A model generated the notes under the pieces. The model saw only the letters and a program-made list of their open reading frames with translations, was not told the DNA's origin and made no database searches. This document shows, one piece after another, positions 4,117-57,400 of a DNA stretch of 64,000 bases. The position numbers and the translations under genes were made by a program. Origin of the DNA: an uncultured Christensenella sp. (lineage in GTDB: Bacteria > Bacillota > Clostridia > Christensenellales > UBA1242); contig CAJJUK010000001.1 of NCBI GenBank assembly GCA_905195085.1, positions 41,719 to 105,718 of the forward strand, written 5' to 3'. Position 1 is the first letter of the stretch, and each line of letters starts with the position of its first letter.

Positions 4117-4150
4117 TTGCATATCACACAAGATGTTGTGTATTATGCAA
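4117..4150. repeat. Palindromic repeat unit (family member 1)
   Basis: TTGCATATCACACAA-gatg-TTGTGTATTATGCAA has 15-nt imperfect inverted arms. It starts 1 nt beyond the SDR gene stop codon. Confidence 0.8.
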
Positions 4151-4888
4151 TTATTCGAGCACTAAACCACCATCTACATACAAGGTTTGACCGGTGATGA
4201 AAGATGCATTATCACTTGACAAAAATGCAACTGCGTTTGCAATGTCATCTGTTGTTCCAAGCCTTTTGAGAGGGGTAATTTCACAAAATTCATCTTTTTC
4301 TTCTTGTGAAAGATTGTTGTTCATTTTTGTGTCAATGAATCCAGGTGCAACGACATTTATTCTCACATCAAGATTTCCAAGTTCGCTTGCCAATGATTTA
4401 CACAAGCCGGAAAGTCCACTTTTTGTTGCTGTGTAAACACTTTCACAGGAACAGCCGTTTTTGTTGACGAAAGAACCAATCAAAACTATGCCTGCAGGGT
4501 TCTTGTTTATTGTGCGCTTTGTGAATTCTCTTATGCATCTGATTGCAGATTTGATGTTTACTTCAAACAGATTGTCGATTTCTTCATCGGACACATCAAA
4601 AATCAGTTGCCTTTTTTGGGCAACTCCTGAACAAAAAACCAAAGTATCCCAATATTTGAAGTCATGTTCCATTTCTTCAAACACCTTCTTAATTTGTGCA
4701 GGTTGGCATAAATCAAGTTTATAACTTTTGATTTCAACGTTTTTCTTGTTTTCAATTTCTTTTTCAAAATCAACTTGATTTGAGTTGTATGTAAGTGCCA
4801 AATTAAATCCTTCTTGAGCCATATGTTTTGCAGTTTCAAGTCCGATATCACTTGAAGCACCAATAATTATTGCTGTTTTCTTTATCAT
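4151..4888 (-). CDS. Short-chain dehydrogenase/reductase (FabG-like)
   Basis: GASSDIG nucleotide-binding motif, catalytic YTATK (YxxxK) and NVVAPGFIDT. Confidence 0.85.
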   Translation of the reverse strand: MIKKTAIIIGASSDIGLETAKHMAQEGFNLALTYNSNQVDFEKEIENKKNVEIKSYKLDLCQPAQIKKVFEEMEHDFKYWDTLVFCSGVAQKRQLIFDVSDEEIDNLFEVNIKSAIRCIREFTKRTINKNPAGIVLIGSFVNKNGCSCESVYTATKSGLSGLCKSLASELGNLDVRINVVAPGFIDTKMNNNLSQEEKDEFCEITPLKRLGTTDDIANAVAFLSSDNASFITGQTLYVDGGLVLE

Positions 4889-5076
4889 TTTAATCCTCCA
4901 ATTTTTATTTTGTTATTGACATTATAACATAGATTGCATTAGGAAAATAGTTCTTTTTTCAAGAACCTAAAATTGATGACAACTTTCTGAAGGTTGTTTA
5001 TTAACAAAACAATATCTAAAAAGGGAAACACTTGTTTTTATTAATCTTCAAAAACGAAGTGGAAAAGCTGACAGAT

Positions 5077-5919
5077 TTATGATTCAGCAATCCATGCAAG
5101 ACCGATTGCTGGGCCAACGTGTGCAGCATTAACTGGGCCCACTTCACCTTCATAAACTTCAATTTTGTCTTTGTCTGGGCGTTTTGCAAGATATTCATAA
5201 ACAAATTTCTTTAACATTTCAAAGAATTTTGTGTTGGCAATATGAATAATGAACAATCTTTTTATTTTTTCAGGGATAGAAGCAATAAGGTCCTTCATTG
5301 CTTTTTGAAGACCAATGCTTTTCTTGTCGGATAATGTCCCTTGTTTAAAGGTGATTATTGGTTTGATTTTCAAAATTGAACCTATTGTGGCAGTGACTTT
5401 TCCAATTCTTCCACCTTTTGCGAGATATTCCAAAGTGTCAGGAATGAAAGAAACTGCGCTGTTTGGAATAAGGCTTTCAATACGTTTGATGATTTCTTCA
5501 CAAGTGGCACCGGCATTTCTCATGTTAACCGCTTCCATTACATATCCCAAAACTGTTTGGGTGTTTCCTTGAGAATCAATCACATGAACTTTGCTTGGAT
5601 CTTTGCATTGATCTTTTGCAAGGCAAGCAACACTATAAGTGCCAGAAAGGGTGCTGCTGATTGTGAAAACAATGACTTCATCTCCCTTATCAATGGCTTT
5701 TTCATATTCTTCAATGAAAGTTTCCAAAGAAGGTTGGCTTGTTTTTGGAAAAACTTTTGTCTTTGTGAAATCTTCAAAAAAGGCATCGTATGTTCCAGGA
5801 TACCCTTCATCAAACTCTTGGTCTTTGTATAAAACTCTGAGTGGAATAACAGTTATATCATTTGCTTCAGCATATTCTTTTGGAGTATATGCCGTACTAT
5901 CAACGATGATTTTAATCAT
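5077..5919 (-). CDS. DegV family fatty-acid-binding protein (FakB-like)
   Basis: The N-terminus MIKIIVDSTAYTP..., the TSQPS motif and the 280-aa length are typical of DegV. Confidence 0.9.
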   Translation of the reverse strand: MIKIIVDSTAYTPKEYAEANDITVIPLRVLYKDQEFDEGYPGTYDAFFEDFTKTKVFPKTSQPSLETFIEEYEKAIDKGDEVIVFTISSTLSGTYSVACLAKDQCKDPSKVHVIDSQGNTQTVLGYVMEAVNMRNAGATCEEIIKRIESLIPNSAVSFIPDTLEYLAKGGRIGKVTATIGSILKIKPIITFKQGTLSDKKSIGLQKAMKDLIASIPEKIKRLFIIHIANTKFFEMLKKFVYEYLAKRPDKDKIEVYEGEVGPVNAAHVGPAIGLAWIAES

Positions 5920-6052
5920 AATTTTCTCCTTAATGGTCCATTTTGGACTTCTCTTATTTTAGCATACAAAATTTTCTTTTCCAAATGATTTTTATATGTT
6001 TCATCACTTTGTGTATGTGCGAATTTTGACGAATGACAAAACCCTCAATTTG

Positions 6053-6081
6053 TTGACTTACTTTGTTTTATATGTTATATT
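6053..6081 (+). promoter_or_regulatory. Sigma-A-type promoter upstream of lysS
   Basis: TTGACT, 17-nt spacer, TG-t-TATATT. It lies ~33 nt upstream of the lysS SD (GGAGG). Confidence 0.5.
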
Positions 6082-6113
6082 TAAACATAATATTCAAAAA
6101 GCGGAGGCATTAA

Positions 6114-7571
6114 ATGGAAGAAAACTTATCAAACGAAATTGATATAAGAAGACAAAAAATCGAAGAACTCAAGAAAATGGGAGAAATTCCATACAAAGAG
6201 AAGTTTGAAAGAACTTGCACAATCAAAGAAGCAAGAGAAAAATTGGGCGAACATGTCAAAATTGCTGGTCGTATCATTTTTCGTCGTATAATGGGAAAGT
6301 TTGGTTTCTGCCAAATCAGAGATATCTATGACAAAATTCAAATTTCAGTTGGAAGAAATGAGTTTTCAGAAGAAGACTATAATTTCTACAAAAAGATGAT
6401 TGATATTGGTGACTTTATTGGAGTTGAAGGGGAAGTTTATCAAACACAAACTGGTGAAATTACAGTCAAGGCAGAAAAGGTTGTTTTGCTTTCAAAAACA
6501 CTTCGTCCGCTTCCAGAAAAATTCCACGGAATTGCAGACACTGAGATTAAATATCGTCAGCGTTATCTTGACCTTATCACAAATGAAGACAGCAGAAAGA
6601 TTTTCTTAACAAGAAGCAAGGTTGTTTCATTTATCAGAAGATATTTGGAAGACAATGGTTTCATTGAAGTTGAAACTCCAATCTTGCAGACAAGTGTTTC
6701 TGGTGCGAGTGCAAAACCTTTCTTCACACATCACAATGCTTTGGACATTGAATGTAACTTGAGAATTGCAACAGAGTGTCATTTGAAGCAATGTATTGGT
6801 GCAGGAATTGACAGAGTTTTTGAACTTGGAAAAGACTTCAGAAACGAAGGAATGGATCCATCTCACCTTCAAGAATTCACTCAGGTTGAGTGGTATGCTT
6901 CTTATTGGAACTTTGAAGACAACATCAAATTCTTCCAAACAATGCTGACGAGTCTTATGCAAGAATGTTTGGGAACAACAAAAATCAACTATCAGGGTCA
7001 GGAAATTGACTTTGGTGGACAATGGCCAAGAATTGATTATGTTGCAAGAATGAGAGAACTTTTGGGTTGTGATTTTCTTTCAATTGATGATGTTGACGAA
7101 TTGAAAAAGATTGTTGTTGACAGAGGGCTTTTTGGCTATACAGAACTTGAAGAATGCAAGACTGTCAGAACCCTTATTGATTATGTCTATAAACGTAAAA
7201 TTCGTGCTGACATTGTCAATCCAACAATTCTTTACAACTATCCAGCATCTCTCATTCCTCTTGCCAGAAGAAATGATAAAGATGAAAGAATTATTGATGT
7301 TTTCCAAGTGGTTGCAGGTGGTGCAGAACTTGTTAAGGCATATTCTGAGCTTGTTGATCCAATCACTCAAAGAAGAACATTGGAACTTCAACTTGAAGAA
7401 AAGAAGGCTGGCGATGAAGAGACTATGGACGTTGATGAAGATTTCTTGCTTGCAATGGAACATGGTATGCCACCAATTTCAGGTTTGGGTTTTGGAATTG
7501 ACAGGTTTTTGCAATTCATTTTCGATTGTCCAAACATCAGAGATGTTGTGCTTTTCCCATTGATGAAATAA
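6114..7571 (+). CDS. lysS: Lysine--tRNA ligase (class II)
   Basis: 485 aa with an N-terminal OB anticodon-binding region and class II motifs (FRNEG, GFGIDRF). Confidence 0.95.
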   Translation: MEENLSNEIDIRRQKIEELKKMGEIPYKEKFERTCTIKEAREKLGEHVKIAGRIIFRRIMGKFGFCQIRDIYDKIQISVGRNEFSEEDYNFYKKMIDIGDFIGVEGEVYQTQTGEITVKAEKVVLLSKTLRPLPEKFHGIADTEIKYRQRYLDLITNEDSRKIFLTRSKVVSFIRRYLEDNGFIEVETPILQTSVSGASAKPFFTHHNALDIECNLRIATECHLKQCIGAGIDRVFELGKDFRNEGMDPSHLQEFTQVEWYASYWNFEDNIKFFQTMLTSLMQECLGTTKINYQGQEIDFGGQWPRIDYVARMRELLGCDFLSIDDVDELKKIVVDRGLFGYTELEECKTVRTLIDYVYKRKIRADIVNPTILYNYPASLIPLARRNDKDERIIDVFQVVAGGAELVKAYSELVDPITQRRTLELQLEEKKAGDEETMDVDEDFLLAMEHGMPPISGLGFGIDRFLQFIFDCPNIRDVVLFPLMK

Positions 7572-7587
7572 CAAAAGAGGTTGTGCG

Positions 7588-8259
7588 ATGATAGATAGCA
7601 AAAGTGTTGTAAGCGGTCTTGATAAAATGATTGAAAACCCAAGATGTGAACTTGAACATCAAACTCCTTTTGAACTTTTGGTTGCAGTCATTTTGTCTGC
7701 CCAATGCACAGATAAGAGAGTCAATCAGGTCACAAATGAACTTTTCAAAACTCACAACAAACCACAAGATTTTGTCGATATTTCTCAAGAAGAATTGGAA
7801 GAGAAAATTCATTCTTGTGGGTTTTATCACAACAAAGCAAAATCAATCAAGTCCGCAAGCCAAGATATCATAAGCAGATTTGGCGGGAAAGTTCCTGACA
7901 ATTTTGATGACCTTTTGACACTTGCGGGTGTTGGAAGAAAAACAGCAAATGTTGTTATGGCTGTGGCTTTTGGTGGAGATAATTTTGCTGTGGACACTCA
8001 TGTGCTTAGAGTTTCCAATCGTCTTGGACTTGTGAACACCAAGGATCCAAACAAATGCGAAGAAAAATTGTGCGAGATTTTTCCAAAAAATGAATGGTCA
8101 AAATTGCACTATCAAATGGTTTTGTTTGGGAGATATGTATGCAAGGCAATGAAGCCAGATTGTGAAAACTGTGTCTTTAATGCAAATTGTCCAAGTTCAC
8201 GCATAGGCGTTCCGCCAGAAGACTTAAAAACAAAGAAAGATGCAAAAACAAAAAAATAG
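7588..8259 (+). CDS. nth: Endonuclease III
   Basis: HhH-GPD region (FELLVAVILSAQCTD, LAGVGRKTANVV) and a C-terminal 4Fe-4S Cys cluster (CKAMKPDCENCVFNANC). Confidence 0.93.
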   Translation: MIDSKSVVSGLDKMIENPRCELEHQTPFELLVAVILSAQCTDKRVNQVTNELFKTHNKPQDFVDISQEELEEKIHSCGFYHNKAKSIKSASQDIISRFGGKVPDNFDDLLTLAGVGRKTANVVMAVAFGGDNFAVDTHVLRVSNRLGLVNTKDPNKCEEKLCEIFPKNEWSKLHYQMVLFGRYVCKAMKPDCENCVFNANCPSSRIGVPPEDLKTKKDAKTKK

Positions 8260-8267
8260 GAGAGTTT

Positions 8268-9539
8268 ATGTTTCTTGACAGAGTTAAAATCTCAATAAAA
8301 GCAGGAAACGGTGGCAAAGGTTCCACCTCTTTTTTGCGTACCGCTCAAACTGCCAATGGTGGTCCAGATGGTGGTGATGGTGGAAAGGGTGGAGATGTGA
8401 TTTTCAAGGCTACAAATGACTTGAACACATTGTATAGTTTCAGATTCAAAAAGAAATTTGTCGCTGAAAATGGCGAAGACGGACATCAAAAAAATCAGAC
8501 CGGAAAGAGTGGAAAAGATGAGATTATTCTTGTTCCAACTGGAACAATTTTGATCAATCCTAAAACGGACAAAATCATTGCTGATTTGAATGAAGATGGG
8601 GCTGTCTTTGTGGCTCTGAAAGGTGGTGTTGGTGGACATGGAAATGCTTACTATAAGTCTTCAATCAAACAGGCACCAACATTCTCTCAACTTGGAGAAA
8701 CAACTTCACCAAAAGAAGTGATTTTGGAACTTAAAACCATTGCTGATGTTGGATTGGTGGGCTTTCCAAATGTTGGAAAATCCACGCTTTTGTCGGTCAT
8801 TTCAAACGCAAATCCAAAGATTGCAAACTATCCTTTCACAACAATATATCCAAATTTGGGAGTGTGTGAAGTTTTGGGAGAAGCCTTTGTTGTTGCGGAC
8901 ATTCCTGGGCTTATTGAAGGGGCAAGTGAAGGGACTGGTCTTGGGCATTATTTCTTGAAACACGTTGAGCGTGTCAGGCTTATCGTTCATTTGATTGACA
9001 TATCTGAAAGTGAAGGAAGAAGTGCTGTTGAAGATTACAAAATCATCAATGATGAACTTGGGAAATATAACAAAGAACTTCTCAAAACAAAACAAATCGT
9101 GGTCTTTTCTAAGTGTGATTTGCTTGACGAAGAAGAACTGAAGAAAAAAATAGACAATTTCACAAAAACTTTGAAGATTTCTGATTATGTTTGCATTTCT
9201 TCATACACTAGAGAGGGTGTTGAAACCTTAAAGAAGAAGATTTTGGAAAACCTGAAGAAAATTCCAAAGAAACAGGCTCTTGCAGTTGAAGAATTTGACT
9301 TTGACAAAAAGGACTTTTCTTCTATCGAAATCACAAGACATGATGATGGCAGTTTTGAAGTTTCTGGGGGAAGAATTGAGAACTTGGCAAGAGGTGTTGT
9401 GATTTCTGACCAAATGTCTTTTGCTTATTTCCAAAACAAACTTAAAGAAATGGGTGTCATTGATATGCTCAAAGAAAAAGGTTTGAAAGAGGGTGACACT
9501 GTTGTGATTAAAGATATTTCATTTGAATATATCGAATAA
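8268..9539 (+). CDS. obg: GTPase Obg
   Basis: The start MFLDRVKISIKAGNGGKG is preceded by AGGAGAG. G1 motif GFPNVGKST is present, with a C-terminal OCT-like domain. The ORF-track start at 8187 would overlap nth. Confidence 0.95.
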   Translation: MFLDRVKISIKAGNGGKGSTSFLRTAQTANGGPDGGDGGKGGDVIFKATNDLNTLYSFRFKKKFVAENGEDGHQKNQTGKSGKDEIILVPTGTILINPKTDKIIADLNEDGAVFVALKGGVGGHGNAYYKSSIKQAPTFSQLGETTSPKEVILELKTIADVGLVGFPNVGKSTLLSVISNANPKIANYPFTTIYPNLGVCEVLGEAFVVADIPGLIEGASEGTGLGHYFLKHVERVRLIVHLIDISESEGRSAVEDYKIINDELGKYNKELLKTKQIVVFSKCDLLDEEELKKKIDNFTKTLKISDYVCISSYTREGVETLKKKILENLKKIPKKQALAVEEFDFDKKDFSSIEITRHDDGSFEVSGGRIENLARGVVISDQMSFAYFQNKLKEMGVIDMLKEKGLKEGDTVVIKDISFEYIE

Positions 9540-9588
9540 TTGCATATTACACTTTAGATTGTTGTGTTATGCAACATAATACACAACA
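9540..9588. repeat. Palindromic repeat unit (family member 2, three half-sites)
   Basis: TTGCATATTACAC-tttagat-TGTTGTGTTATGCAA-CATAATACACAACA. It begins immediately after the obg stop, upstream of yhbY. Confidence 0.8.
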
Positions 9589-9616
9589 TATTGTGATTAA
9601 ATTAAAAGGAAATGAT

Positions 9617-9910
9617 ATGATAACAACAAAACAAAGAGCGTATTTGAGAGGTCTTGGAAATGCACTTGACCCAGTTATGCAGATTGGAAAAGATGGCATT
9701 TCTGAAAATGTCCTTAATGGAGTCAACTTGCTTTTGGAAGCAAGAGAACTTGTCAAAATCAAAATGCTCAAAAATTGTGACTATGAAATTAAAGATTTGG
9801 CAAATGAAATTGCACAAAAAACGAATGCTGAAGTGGTGCAAGTGATTGGCAATATTTTCATTTTATACAAATCAACTCGAAAAGATTTCAAACACATTCA
9901 ATTGCCTTAA
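9617..9910 (+). CDS. yhbY: YhbY/CRS1-type RNA-binding ribosome assembly protein
   Basis: MITTKQRAYLRGLGNALDPVMQIGKDGI... matches the CRM/YhbY domain. AAAAGGA lies 6 nt upstream of ATG 9617. Confidence 0.85.
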   Translation: MITTKQRAYLRGLGNALDPVMQIGKDGISENVLNGVNLLLEARELVKIKMLKNCDYEIKDLANEIAQKTNAEVVQVIGNIFILYKSTRKDFKHIQLP

Positions 9911-9966
9911 TTTGTCGTGTTGACATCGACAACATGAAACAGATGCACCTGTCTGCTTCATTGTTG

Positions 9967-10016
9967 TTTATGTTATTTATTTTATGTTATTTATTATGTG
10001 ATTTTATGTTATGCAA
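9967..10016. repeat. Tandem 14-bp direct repeat plus a family half-site
   Basis: TTTATGTTATTTAT occurs twice in tandem (9967-9994). TTATGTTATGCAA follows at 10004-10016. The region lies between convergent 3' ends. Confidence 0.7.
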
Positions 10017-10022
10017 TTGTTT

Positions 10023-10835
10023 TTATAGGATTTCGCTTTCGGTCTTGACATTGAAATATGGATTGAATTGTGAAATAAGAGCAAAAATTACCAATATCGA
10101 TGCAACGACGCAATAATAGATTGTCATTCTGATAAACAAACTGCTCAAGATAAGGATGATGGCGGAGAATAAATAGCCCTTTGTCCTTTTTTTATTGAAC
10201 GAATAGGCAACAAAGTCTTTGAATGCAAGTTTCTTTTCTTTTTTATATTGATGAGTTATTTCAGGGAAACAATCATAGAATTTGTAAAGTTTTTCGTAGG
10301 TGGCATAGGTGTCCAAAATCAAAAATTTTTCATTAAAATTTTGGCAAAATGCACTGAGCCCTTTGTCCGTTATTTCTTTGCAACAAATGACAATCTTTGT
10401 TGCTTTTTCTTTTTTGACACTGTTATAGATGCTCATGAATCTTGAAATTGTCATTCCTTCAAAAGAAACATCAACATAAAGCAGAGTTTTCACTTTTTCT
10501 TCGACATGGTTAATCACAATGTATTTCTTGTGTTTTGTTATGTTTTTGTGCTTTTTTGAGGCGAGTTTGACAAAAAATTCCATAGGGTCAGTTTGACAGG
10601 CTAAGGACAAGAACATATTTTCAGCATCTTCTTTTTCTTTCATCTTCAAACCGGTTTTGTTTTGCTTATTTCTCTGCACGCAGAAAATGATGAGATAGAT
10701 CAGACTTGTCAGTATGAATGTGAGAAGAACGGACAGCCACAATTTTTTTATGAAATATCTTATCCAAACGAAGCAAAAAAGATAGATAAGTGTGAACTTC
10801 AGAATTTCTTGAAATATAAGGTTAATCTTTCTCAT
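10023..10835 (-). CDS. Membrane protein, unknown function (2 N-terminal and 2 C-terminal TM helices around a soluble domain)
   Basis: 270-aa ORF with a clear hydrophobic N- and C-terminus. I recognise no diagnostic motif. Confidence 0.6.
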   Translation of the reverse strand: MRKINLIFQEILKFTLIYLFCFVWIRYFIKKLWLSVLLTFILTSLIYLIIFCVQRNKQNKTGLKMKEKEDAENMFLSLACQTDPMEFFVKLASKKHKNITKHKKYIVINHVEEKVKTLLYVDVSFEGMTISRFMSIYNSVKKEKATKIVICCKEITDKGLSAFCQNFNEKFLILDTYATYEKLYKFYDCFPEITHQYKKEKKLAFKDFVAYSFNKKRTKGYLFSAIILILSSLFIRMTIYYCVVASILVIFALISQFNPYFNVKTESEIL

Positions 10836-14290: not shown

Positions 14291-15235
14291 ATGAAAAATC
14301 AATTGAACAGAGATTTGATTGAGGAGCTTAATGAAAGCAACAATCCAGAATTTTTGGATAATGTCAATGACAAGATTTATGATTTGATTTCTTGCACAAT
14401 CAGTGACATATCTTTAAAATCGCCTTTTATCAAAACTGACAAATGTGTTCTTCTTCCTGTCAATGAACTTTACACTGGTGCGGTTTCACAGTTGTCGGAA
14501 TTCACATACTTCCTTGGTGTTGAAAATCCTCAGATTGAATTTAATTCCAAGAAAAAGAGCAACTTTTGGAAAAATTTATGGAGAGAATTCAGAGCTTCTT
14601 GGAGACTGGGCAAGAAGAAATATAAAAAACAAAAAAACACTCTTTCAACAGACCCAGTTGACAAATATAATATGAATGATTTTAAGCATGACATTGTCAA
14701 GGTTATGGCGGATTATTTAAGTCAAACCTCTGTGATTTATGAGTACACTTCTCATCTTTCAATTGTTGGAATTGATGATTTTGGAACAAATGTCAGAATC
14801 AATATCATCGTCTGCTGTTATGATTCTCGTAAAAACCTTTACAAAATCTATAATCAGCGAAAAAATAAATATTTTGTTGTTGATTTTGGCAACAGGTTTT
14901 CTAATATCAGTTACAAAACAAAAACGTGTGGGCTTATCTATATTGACATGATTAAACTTATAAACATTCTCTATTCAAAGAACTACAACAAAATTCCAAA
15001 TCAAATCTTGGTGGAAAGTTTGCTGTTTAATTGCCCAAATGTTTTGTTTGACAATAATGATGTCTATAAAACTTTTGTCAATGTTGCAAATTACATTCGT
15101 CTTGCAAGTCCACAATCTTTCCTTTCAATTTGTGACGGAAGCAAGACAATTTTTCAAGACGAACTCATAACAAAAAACAATTCTCATCTTGATTACAGCA
15201 AAATAATCGGTATGCTTGATAATTTTAAGTATTAA
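14291..15235 (+). CDS. Hypothetical protein with nucleotidyltransferase-fold-like layout (tentative)
   Basis: 314 aa with an AAGGAAG SD. LYTGAVSQLSEFTYFLGV sits where hG[GS]x9-13[DE]h[DE]h would be. The distal helix region IKLINILYSKNY..ILVESLLFNCPNVLF resembles SMODS/CD-NTase-type proteins. This resemblance is from memory only. Confidence 0.4.
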   Translation: MKNQLNRDLIEELNESNNPEFLDNVNDKIYDLISCTISDISLKSPFIKTDKCVLLPVNELYTGAVSQLSEFTYFLGVENPQIEFNSKKKSNFWKNLWREFRASWRLGKKKYKKQKNTLSTDPVDKYNMNDFKHDIVKVMADYLSQTSVIYEYTSHLSIVGIDDFGTNVRINIIVCCYDSRKNLYKIYNQRKNKYFVVDFGNRFSNISYKTKTCGLIYIDMIKLINILYSKNYNKIPNQILVESLLFNCPNVLFDNNDVYKTFVNVANYIRLASPQSFLSICDGSKTIFQDELITKNNSHLDYSKIIGMLDNFKY

Positions 15236-15291
15236 TCGGCAATGTTGTATATTTTTCGACATTTTGCAAATCCTATTTGTAGGAGGAGCAA

Positions 15292-15486
15292 ATGAAAGAA
15301 ATTTGGATGGTTGTTGGTTTTGGTGCCGGACTTGTGACAGGGGCACTTCTCTACAAACATTGTGAAGATGCAAAGAAACTTGTCAACAAGGGTGAAAAAG
15401 CCGTAAAAAAAGAGGTCGAAAACTTGAAAGAAGCGGTCAAAAAACCACAAAAGGCAATGAAACAACAAACTAAAACAGAAAATTAA
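15292..15486 (+). CDS. YtxH-like small membrane-anchored protein
   Basis: N-terminal TM helix (WMVVGFGAGLVTGALLY) followed by a Lys/Glu-rich helix. Strong SD AGGAGGAG. Confidence 0.6.
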   Translation: MKEIWMVVGFGAGLVTGALLYKHCEDAKKLVNKGEKAVKKEVENLKEAVKKPQKAMKQQTKTEN

Positions 15487-15489
15487 ATA

Positions 15490-15527
15490 AAAAAGCAGAA
15501 TTAGATTAATTCTGCTTTATTTTTTGT
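15490..15527 (+). terminator. Rho-independent terminator
   Basis: AGCAGAATTA-gat-TAATTCTGCT followed by TTTATTTTTT. Confidence 0.8.
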
Positions 15528-15537
15528 TTTGATTAAC

Positions 15538-15567
15538 AAAAAAGCAAGGACATTGACCTTGCTTTTT
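15538..15567. terminator. Bidirectional terminator (3' end of SRP RNA)
   Basis: GCAAGG-acattga-CCTTGC is flanked by an A-run and a T-run, directly after the SRP RNA 3' end on the minus strand. Confidence 0.75.
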
Positions 15568-15570
15568 TCA

Positions 15571-15837
15571 TACTAGGCGAATGCTTCGTTACAATCTGAC
15601 TGACTGCCTCGCAGTTTTTCAACTCCACCAAAGTTTCCTCATGGCACATCAACTTATCTTCTTAATGATGCTTCCGTCAGGACCTGACATGGTTCGAAGG
15701 AGTCAATTGCATAAGACCTTAATTTCACCATCAAAAAGCTACGCACATATTCAACCAAATTGCACCTAGGCAAGCGTTCAATCCTGCTGTAGCGGATTGC
15801 AGGTTACAGGGCACCGCTAACTCCCCATCTAGCCTAG
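15571..15837 (-). ncRNA. ffs: Signal recognition particle RNA, long (Bacillus-type, with Alu domain)
   Basis: The minus strand contains the domain IV core GUCAGGUCCUGACGGAAGC. It also has an Alu-like 5' region GGGGAGUUAGCGGUGCCCUGUAACCUGCAAUCCGCU. 5' CUAGGC pairs with 3' GCCUAG. A consensus promoter and a terminator flank it. Confidence 0.85.
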
Positions 15838-15844
15838 TTTTATT

Positions 15845-15873
15845 ATTATATGCATTTTTCAAAATTATGTCAA
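15845..15873 (-). promoter_or_regulatory. Consensus sigma-A promoter of SRP RNA
   Basis: The minus strand reads TTGACA, exactly 17 nt, then TATAAT. 7 nt later the RNA 5' end CTAGGC begins. Confidence 0.8.
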
Positions 15874-16006
15874 GTGTAGAAACGAAAAACTTGATGTTCT
15901 TTTGTTTTGTTTGAATTGCTTACTCTGTTCAATTTGTGATTTTGATTCTTCGACAAAATGAAATAAAACCATTCAAATTTCTTCACAAAATCAAAGCAGG
16001 GGTTTT

Positions 16007-16014
16007 CATACAAT
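16007..16014 (+). promoter_or_regulatory. Possible sigma-E-type -10 element upstream of spoIIIAA
   Basis: CATACAAT matches the sigma-E -10 consensus CATACA-T and lies 19 nt before ATG 16033. I could not find a convincing -35. Confidence 0.3.
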
Positions 16015-16032
16015 GCTCTAAAGAGGTGGAGT

Positions 16033-16938
16033 ATGTTAGAGAAAATCTTGCCTGATAAGTTCTACAAAATCTTGTCCGAAAAAGTGAATTTGAAAGCGGT
16101 TAATGAAATCAGACTTCGTGCAGACAAGCCGGTTGTGATCAATGTCAGCGGAAAGATGTATTTCTTATCCGAAAATGGTGTGACTGGCAATGTGAACAAC
16201 AGTCTTTATGCCAGCAAGATTATGATTGAAGATGTCATTTTCAGGGCAAGCGAATGTTCCATCTACTCCGTCAATGAACAGATAAAAAAGGGGTTTATTG
16301 TCACAGATGATGCTGTCAGAATTGGTATTGGTGGAAATTTGATTGAAGAGAACGGACACATAAAAACAATGACAAACTTTTGCAGTTGCAACATCAGAGT
16401 TCCACACGTCGTGAAAAATTGCAGTTTGACAGCCTATCCATTTATGGTTTCTGAAAGTGGAGTGGCAAACACCTTGGTCATTTCTCCGCCAGCTTGTGGA
16501 AAGACGACATTTTTGCGTGATTTTGTCTATCAACTCAGTGAACGTAATCTTCCATATAACATTCTTCTACTGGACGAGAGAGGGGAACTTGATTGCGGAA
16601 TAAACTCAAAGTTTACTGACAAGATTGCATTCGCAACAAAAAAAGTTGGATTTGAAAATGGCATTAGGTCGCTGTCACCAGACATTATTGTGACGGACGA
16701 AATCGGACAGGAAGAGGACATTGAAGCAATCAGATATGCAAGTTCTTGCGGGGTTAAAGTTTTGGCATCAACGCACGCTGACAACATGGAAACTTTTTGC
16801 AAAAAAGGACTTTTTCAAACGCTAATCAAAGAAAAGGTTTTCAAAAGATATGTTCTTCTTTCAAAGCGAAATGGTCCAGGGACTTTTGAGGGAATTTATG
16901 ACGAGAACTTCTCAAGAGTTTTCAGCAATTTCAAATGA
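16033..16938 (+). CDS. spoIIIAA: Stage III sporulation protein AA (ATPase)
   Basis: Walker A SPPACGKTTFLRD and Walker B IIVTDEIG. It is the first gene of an 8-gene spoIIIA-ordered cluster. Confidence 0.92.
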   Translation: MLEKILPDKFYKILSEKVNLKAVNEIRLRADKPVVINVSGKMYFLSENGVTGNVNNSLYASKIMIEDVIFRASECSIYSVNEQIKKGFIVTDDAVRIGIGGNLIEENGHIKTMTNFCSCNIRVPHVVKNCSLTAYPFMVSESGVANTLVISPPACGKTTFLRDFVYQLSERNLPYNILLLDERGELDCGINSKFTDKIAFATKKVGFENGIRSLSPDIIVTDEIGQEEDIEAIRYASSCGVKVLASTHADNMETFCKKGLFQTLIKEKVFKRYVLLSKRNGPGTFEGIYDENFSRVFSNFK

Positions 16939-36396: not shown

Positions 36397-36401
36397 ATTT
36401 T

Positions 36402-39136: not shown

Positions 39137-39166
39137 AGATTTTCCTTTTTAATTTAAGCACAACAT

Positions 39167-39205
39167 ATTGTGGTATTATTCAATATTTTATTGCATAACA
39201 CAACA
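39167..39205. repeat. Repeat-family unit between hslU and tcdA
   Basis: ATTGTGGTATTATTCAA-tatttta-TTGCATAACACAACA, i.e. inverted half-sites. Confidence 0.7.
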
Positions 39206-39215
39206 ATTTCTAGTG

Positions 39216-41078: not shown

Positions 41079-42417
41079 AAAATTTCTCCTTAAATTTCTC
41101 AATTTGCGATTTAGATAAGAATTTTTGAACTTCAACTTGCTTACTGAAAAGTTGCAAGTCCTTGTCTTCTTTATTGATTATATCATATTTCAGATTGAAT
41201 AACCTAAAATTTATAACACTTTTTTTAAGTAAATTGTCAAGTATAACACTGATGCAAGTTTTGTCTCTCAAAAGCTCCACACCCAGTTTGTTTTTTCTTT
41301 CTGCGATAATTGTGTATGCACAATAGTTTGCCATTAGCAAAACTTCAAAAGCGTCAGCAAGTCCAGCAAGTCCTCCGCAAACATAGACATTTTCATGTCC
41401 CAAAATTTGTAAATTTTGATTTAAACAAGTTGGAGTCAACAAGAAGGTTTTTCTTTTAATCTTGCTAAATCTTACAACCTGGCAATTTTTTAAAACATCA
41501 ATATTTTTAATAATTTTCTCTTGGTCTTCATCATCAAAAGCAGAAAAGAATTCCTCAAAAATTAAAACATTCTCCTTGTCATTATAACTGCATTTTAAAC
41601 TTGCGTAAGGTCTTTTTTGCTGGCTGATTTCTCCGTTGAAATATGGCCTAAAAATCGCATTTCTAAGTCCACCCTGCCCTCTTCTTGCAGTGTTTTCTAT
41701 GGAAATTTGTTTTTCGTCTGCAATCTCAGATGGCATGACATATTCCTTATCCAACTCAATTATTGTCTTATAGACATTGTTATATTCCTCTTCAGTAAGA
41801 TTGATGTAACAAACATCGTCAGAGACAAAGTTGAGTCTGTTTAAATCAACCGTAGTGGCATCAACAACCATTTTCTCTGGCTGAAAATAACAGATATGAA
41901 ATTTTCCAACATATTTCTCCAATTCATCAAGCAACACTTTCTCTGTGTTGTGCCCCGTTGCAATGACCGTTGTTTCTGTTTCGTTTATTGTATCAATCTT
42001 CATGTTGAAAATTTTAATTTTTTGGTTTGACAACAACAATTCTTTGACTTTACTCATGAAATTATCATCATAAACAAATCCAAAATCATTGAAATCATAT
42101 CTTTTAGCAACAGAAATAAGAGGACTGTTCAAACACTCCAGTTCATATTTCATGTTGTCCGTCAAATATGTGTCATAAATGTCATTGTAATGTCTTTCTT
42201 GTCCATCACCCTGCTGATTCGGACTTTTGTCAGCACCAAGTGCAATTTCCTCATCAGAAATGACATTTCTTTCTTTTTTATCTTCAAAATTGCAATCAAA
42301 AATATGCACATCAAAACCATTGTTGGCAAGAATAAAAGCAATTTCTGCACCTGCCAACCCACAACCAACAATTTTTATTGGCTTCTTTGAAAATTTTGGT
42401 GTGATGTTTTCAATCAT
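41062..42417 (-). CDS. Divergent TrmFO/Gid-like FAD-binding protein
   Basis: [14 protein letters not shown] dinucleotide motif. It is collinear with TrmFO ([36 protein letters not shown]) and sits at the topA-trmFO-hslVU syntenic slot. I cannot find the CSNS or second catalytic Cys motif. Confidence 0.55.
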
Positions 42418-52610: not shown

Positions 52611-53885
52611 TTAGCAATTAGGGCAAGAATGTTGTTCTTCTTGGATAATTTCCAATTTGTTGTTTTCTTTCAAGAATTTGTGAAGTTTGTCAAGCAAGAG
52701 TTCGTTTTCTTTTCTAACGATTTCGTGACTGTCTTTCATTCCCTTTGTTGCTTCTTCAAGTTCTTTTGCAGAAACTTCGATTTTGTTTTCTTCAAGAAGT
52801 TTTCTATAGATATAACGAGTCTTGATCATCTTCAAAGTTCTTTCTTTTGCACCTTTCAAATAGTCTTGCAAGTTAGAACCAGTTTGAGTGAGATAGTCTT
52901 CCAAAGTGATATTATATGCACCAAGAGCATCTCTCATTCTTTGAACGTCGTCGTTAACTGCGTTTTCCACCATAACTTCAGGAATTTCCACCTTAGTGTT
53001 TGCAAGCAAATATTCCCTCATGTTGTATTCAAATTCATCCTCAAATTGCTTGTCCTTCATATCTTGAATATGAGCAGTTAAATCTTTTCTATACTCTTCA
53101 ACAGTTTCAAATTCTGTCGTATCAGCAACAAATTTGTCATTGAACTCTGGCAAAGTTTTTTCTCTAACATCGTTGACAACAACTTTAAAGAGTGCTTTTT
53201 TGCCTTTAAATTCTTCTGCTTGATAGTTTTCAGGGAAAGTCACATTGACATCAACCTTGTCACCTTTCTTGTGTCCAATGAGTTGGTCTTCAAAGTTGTC
53301 AATGAAACTGTGAGAACCAATTTCAAGAGGATAATCTTTTGCAGCACCACCATCAAAAGCAACATCATCAATGTATCCAGTGAAGTCAATCAAAGCGCTG
53401 TCGCCGTTTTTGATTTCTCTGTCAACAGAAACAAACTTTGCGTTATCTTCAAGAAGATGATGGATTTGATGTTCAATGTCATGTTCTGTCACTTCTTTGC
53501 TGTGAACTTTGATTGTAACATCTTTATATTTGCACAATTCAAAGTCAGGAACGATATCAAAGAAGATTTTCATTTTGAGACCATCGTTTGCTGTGAAACT
53601 TTCAAATTGAGTTGTTGGCATTGCAACAGGTTCAAGTTCTGGGTTTTGAGCAAGAACTTCGCCGATTGTGTCGTTAACAAATTTTTCTACAGTATCTTCA
53701 AAAAACACGCTGTCACCATAAAGTTGTTCAATAACTTTTCTTGGAGCATGTCCCTTTCTAAAACCTTCAATATTAAATTTGCTTTTTGAGGATTCATAAA
53801 CTTGTTGAACCCCTTTTTCCCATTCAACATTGTCAATAGACAAGTCAATTTCTACTTTTGTATTTTCTTTTTTTACACTAAACAT
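52611..53885 (-). CDS. tig: Trigger factor
   Basis: The GFRKGHAP ribosome-binding motif, a central FKBP domain and its position upstream of clpP-clpX. Confidence 0.94.
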   Translation of the reverse strand: MFSVKKENTKVEIDLSIDNVEWEKGVQQVYESSKSKFNIEGFRKGHAPRKVIEQLYGDSVFFEDTVEKFVNDTIGEVLAQNPELEPVAMPTTQFESFTANDGLKMKIFFDIVPDFELCKYKDVTIKVHSKEVTEHDIEHQIHHLLEDNAKFVSVDREIKNGDSALIDFTGYIDDVAFDGGAAKDYPLEIGSHSFIDNFEDQLIGHKKGDKVDVNVTFPENYQAEEFKGKKALFKVVVNDVREKTLPEFNDKFVADTTEFETVEEYRKDLTAHIQDMKDKQFEDEFEYNMREYLLANTKVEIPEVMVENAVNDDVQRMRDALGAYNITLEDYLTQTGSNLQDYLKGAKERTLKMIKTRYIYRKLLEENKIEVSAKELEEATKGMKDSHEIVRKENELLLDKLHKFLKENNKLEIIQEEQHSCPNC

Positions 53886-54070
53886 TTTTACCTCCGTTGT
53901 TTAACTGATAGATTTTAGCATATCAAAGAGCAAAAAGCAACAAATATTGACACATAAACAGGCATTTTTTGTCGAAAATTGCAAGATTATGCCTATTGTC
54001 AACCCTCAAGAACCCCAAAAAATTATTTTTATTTGCAAATAATCACAAAATCTCCAAAAATTTGTGATAT

Positions 54071-54107
54071 AAATTAGATAAATCAAGATGTTGTGAGTGT
54101 TATGCAA
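54071..54107. repeat. Repeat-family unit upstream of the recombinase gene
   Basis: AAATTAGATAAATCAAGATGTTGTGAGTGTTATGCAA shares AATTAGAT...AGATGTTGTG..TTATGCAA with unit 4109-4150. Confidence 0.7.
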
Positions 54108-54189
54108 AAGAAAAACTAAATATAGAACAAAGCAAGTTAGCCAAAGCAAAGAAAAGTTTCTTATTTACATAACTTTATTTTTCATTTGT

Positions 54190-54217
54190 TTGATTTTTAT
54201 TTTATTTTTGCTATAAT
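54190..54217 (+). promoter_or_regulatory. Sigma-A-type promoter abutting the recombinase start codon
   Basis: TTGATT, 16-nt spacer, TG-c-TATAAT. Only 6 nt (aaaaac) separate the -10 from ATG 54224 and there is no SD. Confidence 0.5.
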
Positions 54218-54223
54218 AAAAAC

Positions 54224-55267
54224 ATGAGTAAATTGTCTTATTATGAAAAAAGAGATTTGTTAAATATGCAGAGAATTGGAAACTATCTTTCCACTTTGCC
54301 TGAATATTGCTATGATTTCTTCACGGGAATTGAAAACAACACTTCCAGCCTAACCCGTGTGAACTATGCCATGGATTTGTGTGTCTTTTTTGATTATTTG
54401 GAAAAATATGTCTTCAGAAAACCAAAGATTCAAATCACTCTTGATGACTTAAATCAAATTCAATCAAGAAACATAGAAAATTTTCTCTCATATTTGTCTT
54501 TCTATCAAAACGATGAGAACAAGATGATTAAAAACACAGAAAAGGGAAAAGCCAGAAAACTTGCAAGCATCAGAAGTTTTTTCAAATATCTTTTCAATCA
54601 TGATTTGATAAAGGCCAATGTTGCCAGCAAAGTTGAGACTCCAAAACTTCACAACAAAGAAATCATAAGACTTGAACAAGACGAAGTTGAGCGTATGCTT
54701 GATGCCGTTCAATCACCAACAACCTTCACAGAAAGACAAAAACATTACAACAAAAACACCCAAGAGCGAGATAACGCCATTGTCACCTTATTCCTTGGAA
54801 CTGGCATAAGAATCTCCGAGCTTGTTGGTCTCAATGTTGAGGACTTTGATTTTTCTCAAAATGCTTTCAAAGTGACAAGAAAAGGTGGAAATCAGACCAT
54901 TTTATATTTCTCTCGAGAAGTTGCCGAAGCCCTGCAGGAATGGCTCAGAAAAAGAGAAACACTCAAACTCAACGAAGATGAAAACGCCATGTTTGTCTCC
55001 CTTCAAAACAAAAGAATCTGTGTTCGTGCAGTGGAAAATCTTGTCAAAAAGTTTGCAAAAGAGGGAAGTCCTTTGAAAAAAATCTCTCCACACAAACTTC
55101 GTTCCACTTTTGGCACAAATTTGTATAGAGAAACAAAAGACATCTACATTGTCGCCGATGTGTTGGGACATAAAGATGTCAACACAACCAGAAAACACTA
55201 CGCAGCAATCAGTGAAGATATGAGAAAGTCTGTCGCAAACGTAGTCAAAATTCATAATGATGATTAA
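54224..55267 (+). CDS. Tyrosine site-specific recombinase (XerC/XerD/XerS-like)
   Basis: C-terminal catalytic residues fit: GTGIRISEL (Arg), HKLRSTF (H-x-x-R) and LGHKDVNTTRKHY (His...Tyr). The N-terminal SAM-like domain is present. ATG 54266 is an alternative start. Confidence 0.88.
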   Translation: MSKLSYYEKRDLLNMQRIGNYLSTLPEYCYDFFTGIENNTSSLTRVNYAMDLCVFFDYLEKYVFRKPKIQITLDDLNQIQSRNIENFLSYLSFYQNDENKMIKNTEKGKARKLASIRSFFKYLFNHDLIKANVASKVETPKLHNKEIIRLEQDEVERMLDAVQSPTTFTERQKHYNKNTQERDNAIVTLFLGTGIRISELVGLNVEDFDFSQNAFKVTRKGGNQTILYFSREVAEALQEWLRKRETLKLNEDENAMFVSLQNKRICVRAVENLVKKFAKEGSPLKKISPHKLRSTFGTNLYRETKDIYIVADVLGHKDVNTTRKHYAAISEDMRKSVANVVKIHNDD

Positions 55268-55270
55268 GTC

Positions 55271-55313
55271 ATTGCATAATACCATATAAGTTGTGATTAT
55301 TTGGCATAATACA
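55271..55313. repeat. Repeat-family unit downstream of the recombinase gene
   Basis: TTGCATAATACC-atataag-TTGTGATTATT-TGGCATAATACAC is homologous along its length to 57311-57354. Confidence 0.75.
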
Positions 55314-55347
55314 CTATATATGGTATTTTTTATTGCTCATAATTTAT

Positions 55348-56523
55348 TTACACCATCCAATCAACATAGACACCATAACCCTTTGTTGGGTCATTTAAAA
55401 ACACGTGCGTCACAGCACCAACAATTTTCCCGTCTTGAATGATTGGAGAACCACTCATACCCTGGACAATCCCCCCTGTCATTTCAAGCAGACGCTTGTC
55501 TTTAACTCTGAAAACAAGGCTTTTGTCATCGGCAGACTTTTGATAGTTTGCTTTTATTATCTCAATTTCATATTCTTCTCTGATTCCACTGATGCTTGAA
55601 GCAATGTAGGCTTTTCCCATTTTCACACCCAGTCGTCCACCAAGTTTTGCAGTGACATTCTCGTCAACAAGCCCCTTAACATCACTCAAAACACCATTAA
55701 TACCAAATTTGGAATTGTTTTCAATCGTTCCCTTGCTTTTGGAATTTGAAACAAAAACACATCTCAGTTCTCCTGGAGCATTTCTTTTTCCTTTGTTTAT
55801 ACCGATCAAATTGCATTCATAAATGTTGCCATTTGCCACAGGCACAACATTCCCACTATTTGCTTCGACAATCGGATGCCCCAAAGCTCCATATTCCTTG
55901 GTTTTCTTGTTGACAAATGTCAAAGTTCCAACTCCAGTTATGTCGTCTTTGACCCACAAACCTAGTTTAAGTTTTCCAGAATTTTCATCTCTAGTGGTTT
56001 TTATCAGAGTCTTGAGCTCCTTGTTTTTCCTTAGAAACTTAACTTCCGCTTCTTCTCCGCTTTCCTGCAAAATATCCTCAATTTGGCTTAAACTTTCAAT
56101 CTCTTGTCCGTTAATCTGCGTGATAATGTCTCCCTCTTTCAAAGAAGTTACAATGTCATTTTCTTCACTGACAACAATTGCTCCGTCAGAGCATATAGAA
56201 AGTCCAATCGGAACCCCACCAACATAATATTCATCATCGCTTGCCAAGACAACATCAACTTTTTTAATTGGAATGAATCCAAACAGTTTGAATACCACTT
56301 CTCCCTGTTTGACTTTTTGTCCACCAACAATCTTTTCTTTTTCCTTCAATTCAGCCTTGAAAAAGTCGCCAAACGTCTTATTTTCATTGACCGACTCAAT
56401 GTCGTTTAATTCAACCAAAAAACCATTTTCCAAACTCATAATTTCCTGCAATGGAAAATATATAGAACAGCAAAGAAAAACAATTAAAAACAAAGAGAAA
56501 AATGTAATAGAATATTTTTTCAT
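55348..56523 (-). CDS. spoIVB: SpoIVB sporulation signalling peptidase (S55)
   Basis: Signal anchor, PDZ domain and the S55 core GVGTLTFVNKKTKEYGALGHPI...GMSGSPI. Confidence 0.92.
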   Translation of the reverse strand: MKKYSITFFSLFLIVFLCCSIYFPLQEIMSLENGFLVELNDIESVNENKTFGDFFKAELKEKEKIVGGQKVKQGEVVFKLFGFIPIKKVDVVLASDDEYYVGGVPIGLSICSDGAIVVSEENDIVTSLKEGDIITQINGQEIESLSQIEDILQESGEEAEVKFLRKNKELKTLIKTTRDENSGKLKLGLWVKDDITGVGTLTFVNKKTKEYGALGHPIVEANSGNVVPVANGNIYECNLIGINKGKRNAPGELRCVFVSNSKSKGTIENNSKFGINGVLSDVKGLVDENVTAKLGGRLGVKMGKAYIASSISGIREEYEIEIIKANYQKSADDKSLVFRVKDKRLLEMTGGIVQGMSGSPIIQDGKIVGAVTHVFLNDPTKGYGVYVDWMV

Positions 56524-56610
56524 AACTGCTTTTAGTCTTTGTAATATTTGAAAAAATATGCCATATTCAAAAATAAAAATCTGACCATAAAGCCAGATCT
56601 TTTAATACTT

Positions 56611-57240
56611 TTAGAAAGCTGTCTTAAGAACAAATGAAAATTGACTAAGCTCTTTCTTAAGTGCTTTGTAATTAGGACAAAGTTTTTCCAAGTCTTTCCA
56701 AAACTGTGGTTTGTGATTCATATGAATGCTGTGACACAATTCATGATAAATAACATACCTAATCAACCTTTCTGGCAAAACAAGCAGTTTGAAGTTCAAT
56801 TTCATCTGTCCTTTTGAATTATAACTTCCCCAAACACGCACAGAATTAGAAGGCTTAATTTCTTTGAATTTAAGCCCTGTCTCTTTTGACAACTTATCTG
56901 CAAGTTCTTCCAGTTTCCAAAACAATGACAAATAATATTTCCTTATTTCTTCCCATTTGTTCTTTGCGCTCAACTTCTCAAAACCAATGCTGATTTCATT
57001 TGTGGAAATGAATTGTTTCCCATCAAGATAAATAAATTTTTCAAAGTCGAAAGCAGTAGAAAACTGTTCTGTTTCTTTCATTCTTTTTGTAACACGATTC
57101 AGCCAATTCGCCTTGCTCTTCAAAAACTCTTCAATCTTTTTGTCACTGATGCTTTTTGGGGCTTTCAAAATGGCATTCTCACTGTCAATCACTTTCAGAG
57201 CAATCGTTTTTCTTTGTTCTTTGATAAGTTTGATTTTCAT
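56611..57240 (-). CDS. DUF45/YgjP-type zinc metallopeptidase (M48-like)
   Basis: C-terminal YVIYHELCHSIHMNHKPQFW contains HExxH in the DUF45 context. ~209 aa. Confidence 0.8.
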   Translation of the reverse strand: MKIKLIKEQRKTIALKVIDSENAILKAPKSISDKKIEEFLKSKANWLNRVTKRMKETEQFSTAFDFEKFIYLDGKQFISTNEISIGFEKLSAKNKWEEIRKYYLSLFWKLEELADKLSKETGLKFKEIKPSNSVRVWGSYNSKGQMKLNFKLLVLPERLIRYVIYHELCHSIHMNHKPQFWKDLEKLCPNYKALKKELSQFSFVLKTAF

Positions 57241-57310
57241 GCCTATATGATAACACTTTTGAAATCAAAAATCAAAAGATTTTGACTTTGTCCAAATATT
57301 TGATCAATTT

Positions 57311-57400
57311 TTGCATATTACCACCATATCTTGTGTCTTATGTTGCATATCACCATAATATTTTGTTATAGTATGCAATTAAATTTTTTTGCATAATACC
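57311..57400. repeat. Densest cluster of repeat-family half-sites (five in 90 bp)
   Basis: TTGCATATTACC (57311), TTGTGTCTTATG (57331), TTGCATATCACC (57343), TTGTTATAGTATGCAA (57363) and TTGCATAATACC (57389). The cluster ends 11 nt (57401-57411) before the -35 of the PadR-like gene. Confidence 0.8.

Follow-up and report, generated by a model that had tools for sequence, protein, structure and literature searches.

What is one short half-site, TTGCATAWYAC or its complement, doing in at least ten separate loci of a single bacterial chromosomal segment? The segment analysed here (the window) comprises 64,000 nucleotides of an uncultured Christensenella sp. (contig CAJJUK010000001.1, positions 41,719 to 105,718), and a first-pass annotation of its letters had likened the paired, mostly intergenic copies to repetitive extragenic palindromic (REP) sequences and bacterial interspersed mosaic elements (BIMEs), with an operator array for an abundant regulator as the alternative. 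We find that the repeat family is real, extragenic and clade-specific, and that its sites are conserved across species and strains. A fixed relation to a promoter holds at one locus and not at most copies, so that neither of the two proposals is sufficient alone. The reading that we favor, at a probability of about one half, is that an ancestral PadR-type operator was amplified into a REP/BIME-like family whose copies would work as protein-binding DNA. Extragenic repeats and operators are known kinds of element; their combination here is new. Literature searches with the motif strings and 11-mers returned unrelated matches only, and no such family described in this clade.

A bipartite unit dispersed between genes

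On the two strands of the window TTGCATAWYAC occurs exactly 12 times against 0.21 expected, a 57-fold enrichment, and none of 100 dinucleotide shuffles reaches 12; with one mismatch allowed there are 27 matches against 6.8 expected. The over-representation that had been estimated from composition is therefore upheld by a shuffled control, and each of the ten loci first listed was confirmed both by reading the sequence and by a scan with a hidden Markov model (HMM) of the unit. Two particulars needed correction. The copies of the exact 11-mer TTGCATAATAC are real, but the one placed at 55271 starts at 55272 and a fourth lies on the minus strand at 4140-4150; the arrays at 36.2 and 57.3 kb, each described as five half-sites, consist of four clear copies of the half-site (Box1, below) and one degenerate copy.

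A consensus built from 26 palindromes and about 160 units, taken from the window and its relatives, defines a bipartite unit of about 22 nt, Box1 TTGCATA-NN-AC plus Box2 (CACAAnATATnTTG). The N positions of Box1 are free (A, C or T, then C or T). Box2, CACAA-N-ATAT-N-TTG(TG), follows directly or one base later. Units placed tail to tail form a 34-nt palindrome, TTGCATAATACACAATATATTGTGTATTATGCAA, which can also be parsed as 13-bp arms flanking an 8-bp AT-rich spacer, and units placed head to head read …GTATTATGCA-A-TGCATAATAC…; direct repeats about 32 nt apart and + - +, - + and + - arrays occur as well. The loci in the window are as follows.

4117-4150: full 34-nt tail-to-tail palindrome (Box1-Box2-Box1'), adjoining the stop codon of the SDR/YmfI-like gene (4151-4888, minus strand)
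9540-9596: + - + array filling the obg|yhbY gap from stop codon to Shine-Dalgarno sequence
10006-10016, minus strand: solitary weak Box1 (TTGCATAACAT; 4.0 bits), 6 nt past the stop codon of a 270-aa gene
28741-28776: head-to-head pair, in frame in the linker of a SpoU-type rRNA methyltransferase (13.7 bits, unit HMM)
32232-32282: - + pair between ruvA and ruvB, ending at the Shine-Dalgarno sequence
36183-36360: four Box1 (36183+, 36250-, 36281-, 36338+) and one degenerate copy, between convergent genes
39159-39216: - + pair between hslU and tcdA, the hslU stop codon lying within the Box1-like TTGTAACAC
54084-54107, minus strand: single unit in the divergent tig|xer gap
55272-55325, plus strand: two direct units 30 nt apart, beginning 4 nt past the stop codon of the Xer-like gene, which is convergent with spoIVB
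57311-57401: largest array (+ + - +), between the divergent promoters of the YgjP-like and PadR-TM genes

The gene calls around obg|yhbY, ruvA|ruvB and hslU|tcdA were confirmed, as were the identities of the SDR/YmfI-like reductase, tig and SpoIVB. The conserved 412-aa protein (2773-4011, minus), earlier called rho-like, matched no NCBIfam or Pfam family, nor did the conserved 270-aa protein (10023-10835, minus); both genes adjoin units. The copy noted inside a coding sequence is indeed in frame, in the 16-residue linker between the two methyltransferase domains (aa 26-95 and 112-253), and spans aa 94-105. At 36183-36360 the units are interleaved with two ordinary terminator-like hairpins. Between the convergent yhbY and 270-aa genes, 9960-10016 holds three to four tandem copies of TTTATGTTAT(TTA) that end in the weak Box1 (TTATGCAA); these could be decayed units.

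To place the units in relation to genes beyond the window, the obg neighborhood was taken from 80 species-level genomes, all of uncultured Clostridia and several of them named 'Candidatus Caccovivens'; the contigs with identical proteins come from human-gut metagenomes. In the ingroup (Obg 79-98% identical to the window's; about 63 loci) a profile scan of 1.02 Mb found 119 sites, a density of 1.16 per 10 kb, and only 6 of the 119 lie inside open reading frames (ORFs), leaving about 95% intergenic; an earlier tally on an overlapping set gave 79 of 86 sites in intergenic DNA, which makes up about 10% by rough ORF calls. Convergent and co-directional gaps are preferred, units occupying 21% of convergent, 8% of co-directional and 4% of divergent gaps. 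Among stop-facing sites 40 of 97 (41%) begin within 5 nt of the stop codon, against 17% when sites are placed at random in the same gaps; since many of the sites are orthologous, such counts overstate the number of independent events. Several stop codons are embedded in Box1-like sequence, as in GTTGAATAA-CAC at obg, and where space allows the order is stop codon, units, ordinary intrinsic terminator and next promoter. The DNA uptake sequences and Correia elements of Neisseria are likewise over-represented short motifs, often inverted pairs just 3' of genes; the uptake sequences, however, are near-exact 10-12-mers that are common inside genes too, whereas the unit described here has degenerate N positions and is 95% intergenic.

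The family is not confined to the window's chromosomal region. A pattern scan of metagenomes found about 19 more palindromes, mostly on contigs without similarity to the window, and these adjoin rplL, serS, truB, ftsY, a sigma-factor gene, mnmA, spoIIAA, scpB and pheS; the presence of palindromes beside such unrelated housekeeping genes indicates a genome-wide family, and it led us to reject terminus-specific sites of the matS or Ter type. The unit pattern had no match in 2.9 million viral contigs, and a phage origin was rejected.

Neither candidate helix is under selection for pairing

The REP and BIME sequences of Proteobacteria, and the REP doublets forming hairpins (REPINs) that are tied to REP-associated tyrosine transposases (RAYTs), are also short extragenic palindromes, present in hundreds per genome in 3' untranslated regions (UTRs) and between co-transcribed genes, with alternating-orientation clusters and lineage-specific sequence variants. 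The likeness drawn in the first-pass annotation stands for the extragenic location, the 3'-end and intercistronic bias, the alternating clusters and the homologous dispersed copies. It fails for the hairpin. A hairpin function would predict that the arms co-vary at their free positions. Over 26 distinct 34-nt palindromes, covariation in the tail-to-tail helix is 0.068, a value that 440 of 500 shuffled alignments equal or exceed, against 0.082 in the shuffles. Pairing fails at columns 8/27 in 15 of the 26 copies and at columns 14/21 in 22, and a separate count of the copies agreed. The head-to-head helix (18 distinct copies) gives 0.106 against 0.111 when shuffled. Compensatory changes were found in neither helix, and the variable columns are mostly unpaired; it is therefore the sequence, not the structure, that is selected.

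Folding points the same way at most loci. Of seven stretches two beat their shuffles, the palindrome at 4117-4150 (-17 kcal/mol, z -4.4) and one strand at 55.3 kb (z -3.1); the other five have z from -1.1 to -1.7. The consensus contains no GTAG-type tetranucleotide beside the palindrome, the conserved flanking part being instead the 9-11-nt Box1. No unit was called as an intrinsic terminator, and ordinary terminators adjoin the units. A sigma-70 promoter within the unit was rejected: TTGCAT as a -35 element or CATAAT as a -10 element misfits the spacing, and about half of the copies have C at position 9, where the -7 T would fall. By eye, the sigma-54 and sporulation sigma (F/G/E/K) consensus sequences misfit in spacing, and apparent resemblances to DnaA, ARG, Fur, Rex, LexA and TnrA boxes failed on alignment.

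The spacing of units within arrays carries a different signal. Units facing head to head are separated by 2-3 nt in 22 cases and by 12-16 nt in 17, those placed tail to tail by 12-13 nt, and direct repeats follow one another at 31-33 nt; the peaks stand about 10-11 nt apart. Such peaks are a property of double-stranded DNA and support a DNA-level reading; we regard this support as moderate, since one promoter site (that of PadR-TM, below) and its orthologues supply about half of the 12-16-nt class.

These data bear on the idea that the units are RNA cis-elements read by their sequence, through an RNA-binding protein, a ribonuclease or a small RNA, and that they set mRNA ends or couple translation. 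Their placement between stop codon and intrinsic terminator, or between stop codon and the next Shine-Dalgarno sequence, would suit such elements, and a terminating ribosome could influence which of several alternative pairings a + - + array adopts. The 10-11-nt peaks and the lack of covariation speak against it, however, as do units in both orientations between convergent genes and the array at the PadR-TM promoter, which lies upstream of the -35 element and hence is not transcribed from that promoter. Rfam at its gathering threshold matched only the bacterial large signal recognition particle (SRP) RNA, and at E values up to 1 gave no match at the loci within 3950-10100 and 53850-57480. We consider this reading highly unlikely. 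The SRP RNA itself (15573-15837, minus strand; 150.7 bits) takes up most of the roughly 800-nt gap at 15235-16033. A sub-threshold match to DABA-DC-AT RNA (55384-55499, minus strand; 24.6 bits against a gathering threshold of 56.1) lies inside the spoIVB coding region and is almost certainly due to chance.

The PadR-TM promoter and the candidate binding protein

At one locus Box1 stands at a fixed distance from a promoter. The largest array in the window ends in a Box1 at 57389-57401, the G of its GCATA lying 21 nt before the -35 element of the gene that we call PadR-TM.

56611-57240, minus strand: YgjP-like/WLM metallopeptidase gene, conserved divergent partner of the PadR-TM gene
57412-57440, plus strand: sigma-70-type promoter TTGACA-17-TATAAT, 12 of 12 consensus matches, driving the PadR-TM gene
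57463-59334, plus strand: PadR-TM gene, encoding the candidate unit-binding protein (623 aa)

In PadR-TM an N-terminal PadR winged helix-turn-helix is joined to about four transmembrane helices at the C terminus by a long, acidic linker of low complexity that contains conserved blocks. The nearest solved relatives of its PadR domain are PadR-s2 proteins, including Clostridioides difficile cdPadR1 and LmrR, and the recognition-helix region P-S/T-L-Y-S-x-L-x-R-M is conserved in all PadR-TM homologues compared. Box1 begins 19-21 nt before the -35 element of the PadR-TM promoter in 12 species whose PadR-TM proteins are 27-100% identical, and reads GCATAATAC/G or, in the most divergent case, CATAATACC. 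An inverted TATGCA lies 7-14 nt farther upstream across an AT-rich spacer, giving TATGCA-N(7-14)-TGCATA or GGTATTATG-N4-CATAATACC ahead of the -35 element.

Distant full-length homologues were taken from a protein library clustered at 50%, and those of 34%, 32% and 27% identity were examined. The promoter in L131 reads CATAATACCCCC…TTGACA, with the partner GGGTATTATG 4 nt upstream; that in L133 reads TTGCATAATAGTG…TTGACT and carries the type-2 (TAG) variant, L133 being a type-2 species; that in L134 reads TTGCATAATACATAC…TTGACA. The YgjP-like gene is divergent from PadR-TM in L133 and L134, the two with a readable neighbor. No dispersed unit was found in the 21.7 kb available for L131, where ruvA and ruvB are directly adjacent without a gap, or in the 5.1 kb for L134. 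The presence of Box1 at its fixed position even in lineages where no dispersed copies were found suggests that it predates the dispersed family and that the PadR-TM promoter is its home. The operator alternative of the first-pass annotation accordingly fits best at 57311-57401; most other copies follow stop codons and have no fixed promoter distance. The idea that the PadR-TM family is confined to the motif-bearing clade was rejected, as full-length relatives exist down to 25% identity.

The sites resemble known PadR operators. ATGT-N8-ACAT is listed among the operators of this family. The AphA operator is ATATGCA-N6-TGCATAT (PMC3440409), and that of the autoregulatory cdPadR1 is TACT-N11-12-AGTA with an AT-rich spacer (PMC5050560); in the genome the cdPadR1 motif matches at about 200 places, more than half of which were reported to lie within ORFs, between convergent genes or ahead of genes for hypothetical proteins (PMC5050560). 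Here too short half-sites are inverted around an AT-rich spacer in the regulator's own promoter, and TGCATA is in the half-site as in the AphA box. The differences are that the regulator has about 620 aa and four transmembrane helices, and that its site, joined here with a second box, has been amplified to form arrays, most copies lying away from promoters.

From these sequence comparisons we propose the following. Box1 would be the ancestral operator half-site of PadR-TM, and two head-to-head Box1 copies would make GTATTATG-N4-5-CATAATAC, typical PadR-operator geometry; the commonest dispersed arrangement, head to head with a 2-3-nt gap, is just such a 20-21-bp inverted repeat. The operator would have been joined to Box2 in a single clade of gut Clostridia and copied to about one intergenic gap per 9 kb, mostly just past stop codons, in 3' UTRs and in intercistronic gaps, and the copies later kept by purifying selection. 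The conserved positions of the unit would then be a protein-recognition sequence on double-stranded DNA and not a hairpin. PadR-TM is the predicted unit-binding protein, and GTATTATGCAATGCATAATAC and the 34-mer are candidate binding sequences of its N-terminal domain (aa 1-100). Binding at gene ends might serve as a boundary or roadblock, control the next gene or tether DNA to the membrane.

A different protein might instead bind the units, such as an abundant nucleoid-associated or boundary protein with control of the YgjP-like/PadR-TM pair as a further role. All of the DNA-level evidence (covariation, spacing and the conservation in strain L002 described below) applies to it equally, and a bias toward gene 3' ends is more in keeping with an architectural or roadblock protein than with a classical repressor. 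It requires an additional factor, however, while the half-site (TGCATA/CATAATAC) and its inverted-repeat geometry match known PadR operators and autoregulation is usual in the PadR family (PMC5050560). We judge it quite unlikely.

The YgjP-like/WLM gene and the gene for the membrane-anchored PadR protein form a conserved divergent pair in L123-L134, down to 27% identity, an arrangement that suggests a module of protease and tethered regulator. One extension of our proposal, which we put forward as doubtful, is that the membrane-anchored protein binds a few hundred phased gene-end sites derived from its own amplified operator and so acts as a chromosome-wide membrane tether or transcription-unit insulator; the YgjP/WLM-type metalloprotease could release its DNA-binding domain from the membrane. 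Noc and its binding sites (NBS), like ParB/parS, also consist of scattered palindromic chromosomal sites bound by a protein, and Noc also contacts the membrane. The likeness is one of idea only: here the protein is a PadR and not a ParB, the sites are much denser and intergenic, and binding is predicted.

Copying, retention and a possible link to recombination

The units behave as sites that have been both copied and kept. Arrays at the SDR stop codon, at obg|yhbY, at the xer 3' end and upstream of PadR-TM recur in nearly every ingroup species examined, the 4117-4150 copy having an orthologue in nearly all of them irrespective of the following gene, and orthologous sites are kept across more than 40 species and do not vary among strains. 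Within orthologous arrays the conserved columns are fixed and the N columns drift over the ingroup's 79-98% range of Obg identity, while unit number and orientation vary among species. In the tig|xer gap 42 of 338 positions differ between the window and L002, the most divergent strain, and none of these falls within 54078-54121, which contains the unit; at the average rate the chance of no change there is about 0.003. As part of the overall reading, and with moderate confidence, we take the copies to be held by purifying selection.

Copying has left its own traces. The shared flank reported earlier is genuine: AATTAGAT occurs four times in the window, twice directly 5' of units that have a common centre, CAAGATGTTGTG. 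These two units are the one at 54084-54107 and the 4117 locus, and the first is absent from L123, L125, L126 and L127. Judging from this non-consensus flank, the rare centre and the absence in four species, the 4117 locus was recently copied to 54084-54107, and the comparison thereby shows that at least one copy arose through duplication. The sister clade that serves as outgroup (Obg 66-73% identical) has a concerted variant with G, often with one or two further bases, between the boxes (GCATAMTAG-CACAA…): the ingroup has 80 copies of GCATAxxACAC and none of GCATACTAG, the outgroup one and 20, respectively. Such concerted variants point to turnover by copying or conversion. The obg|yhbY junction has arrays in both groups; the clade L045-48/L050 has no unit in 62 kb and a tight 10-nt obg|yhbY junction.

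How far, then, could the family be explained as selfish REP- or REPIN-like elements, in which the 34-nt palindrome or a Box1+Box2 hairpin is the single-stranded DNA substrate of a dedicated, co-evolving transposase (a RAYT or another), with any host effect at the RNA level, through 3'-UTR hairpins that block exonucleases or couple translation? Such elements would account for extragenic palindromes in alternating clusters with a 3'-end bias, for the copying (the shared AATTAGAT flank, the species-specific gain at tig|xer, the in-frame copy in a protein linker), for the concerted clade-specific variants, for the complete absence of units, together with the tight junction, in L045-48/L050 and for a Box1-Box2 linker that varies from 0 to 3 nt. 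They would not account for helices without compensatory changes, most loci folding like shuffles; a GTAG-like tetranucleotide is lacking, as are target-site duplications, no direct repeats flanking the palindromes, and no transposase, RAYT included, was seen beside any of about 135 fetched loci or in the genes called there. Among 11 strains of the window's species we found no presence/absence polymorphism, the orthologous arrays are near-universally conserved under position-specific constraint, and Box1 holds its fixed promoter position in two lineages where dispersed copies were not found. In the known systems, unlike here, the conserved core is not a regulator gene's operator. We consider this explanation, in both its parts together, unlikely. 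A miniature inverted-repeat transposable element (MITE) was rejected on the missing target-site duplication and the identical presence of copies across the 11 strains.

A further candidate binder is encoded beside the units at 54-55 kb.

54224-55267, plus strand: Xer-like tyrosine recombinase gene, a core gene 77-92% identical across the clade

The units might be binding arms or recombination sites of this single recombinase (dif half-sites or XerD-only sites). The 13-bp arms around an 8-bp AT-rich spacer would then be explained, as would rearrangement breakpoints, and TATTATGCAA presumably resembles the XerD arm of the Firmicutes dif site. Units lie past the xer stop codon in seven of nine species, units are found at three of four inversion boundaries in the region, and L124 has an inversion of xer alone. 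Against this, the unit upstream of xer is not conserved, the L035 junctions and the L124 5' flank have no units (which ruled out inversion of xer by flanking units), and three boundaries of four would carry units by chance with a P of about 0.06. Hundreds of recombination sites would be hazardous for a genome, a solitary Box1 at a fixed distance from a -35 element is operator-like, and the units lack the 11-6-11 structure of dif. A dif site would be expected once, at the terminus, as 28-31 bp with 11-bp arms around a centre of 6-8 bp, whereas the units have many copies genome-wide. We hold this to be the least probable of the explanations weighed here.

Several observations concern the same region. 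No canonical Firmicutes-type dif was found in the window. Upstream of xer, 54046-54073 (AATCACAAAAT-CTCCAA-AAATTTGTGAT) is an 11-6-11, dif-like palindrome, probably non-functional given about six substitutions in L002. The xer gene appears to be leaderless, a TG-extended TATAAT ending 6-7 nt before the ATG both in the window (54190-54226) and in L102 (8640-8700), whose Xer-like protein is 59% identical to the window's. Related species (L026, L035, L040, L041, L124, L128, L130) are distinguished by several inversions of this region; the module boundaries are p412|SDR (4012-4150), tig|xer (53886-54223), xer|spoIVB (55268-55347) and spoIVB|YgjP (56524-56610), and in five species the SDR 3' end adjoins the spoIVB 3' end across a gap filled with units. 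GC skew and gene orientation flip at about 36 kb (36100-36400), with plus-strand genes from 6 to 36 kb, minus-strand genes from 36 to 54 kb and a peak in cumulative skew; this switch is a replication-terminus signature. The dprA-topA-trmFO-hslV-hslU block (41062-42417 to 39216-40511, minus strand), which we take to correspond to the Bacillus subtilis order smf-topA-gid-codV-clpQ-clpY, has no xerC/codV between trmFO and hslV. That absence fits reliance of the clade on the single Xer-like gene at 54.2 kb.

Several points weigh against an amplified PadR operator. The position of most dispersed copies, at gene 3' ends and away from promoters, would be unusual in a classical regulon; Box2 is missing from the ancestral operator, and the proposal offers no explanation for it; another regulator that controls the YgjP-like/PadR-TM pair could bind the same boxes; and a concerted change of hundreds of sites is easier to obtain by ongoing copying or gene conversion than by site-by-site co-evolution. 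The data are also bounded: save for about 15 metagenome contigs the ingroup sample comes from one chromosomal neighborhood of about 64 kb, many counts, the spacing histogram above all, include orthologous and hence non-independent sites, and the absence of dispersed copies from the lineages of L131 and L134 was observed in 21.7 and 5.1 kb only.

Dispersed extragenic repeats are poorly catalogued in Bacillota, and the family described here is a previously undescribed one from a common human-gut lineage. The motif and its clade variants are sharp markers for the binning and classification of metagenome-assembled genomes, and the arrays mark gene boundaries for annotation. The candidate partner, a membrane-tethered PadR domain, makes the old question of the host role of REP-like repeats experimentally approachable for this family. 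If the tether or insulator extension were true, a bacterial transcription-factor site would have been spread by repeat expansion and then domesticated. If the amplified-operator reading is correct, REP-like repeat expansion and transcription-factor operators, usually treated apart, would become linked: selection would have preserved, in dozens of species, a regulator's own site that had multiplied to a density of about one per 9 kb.

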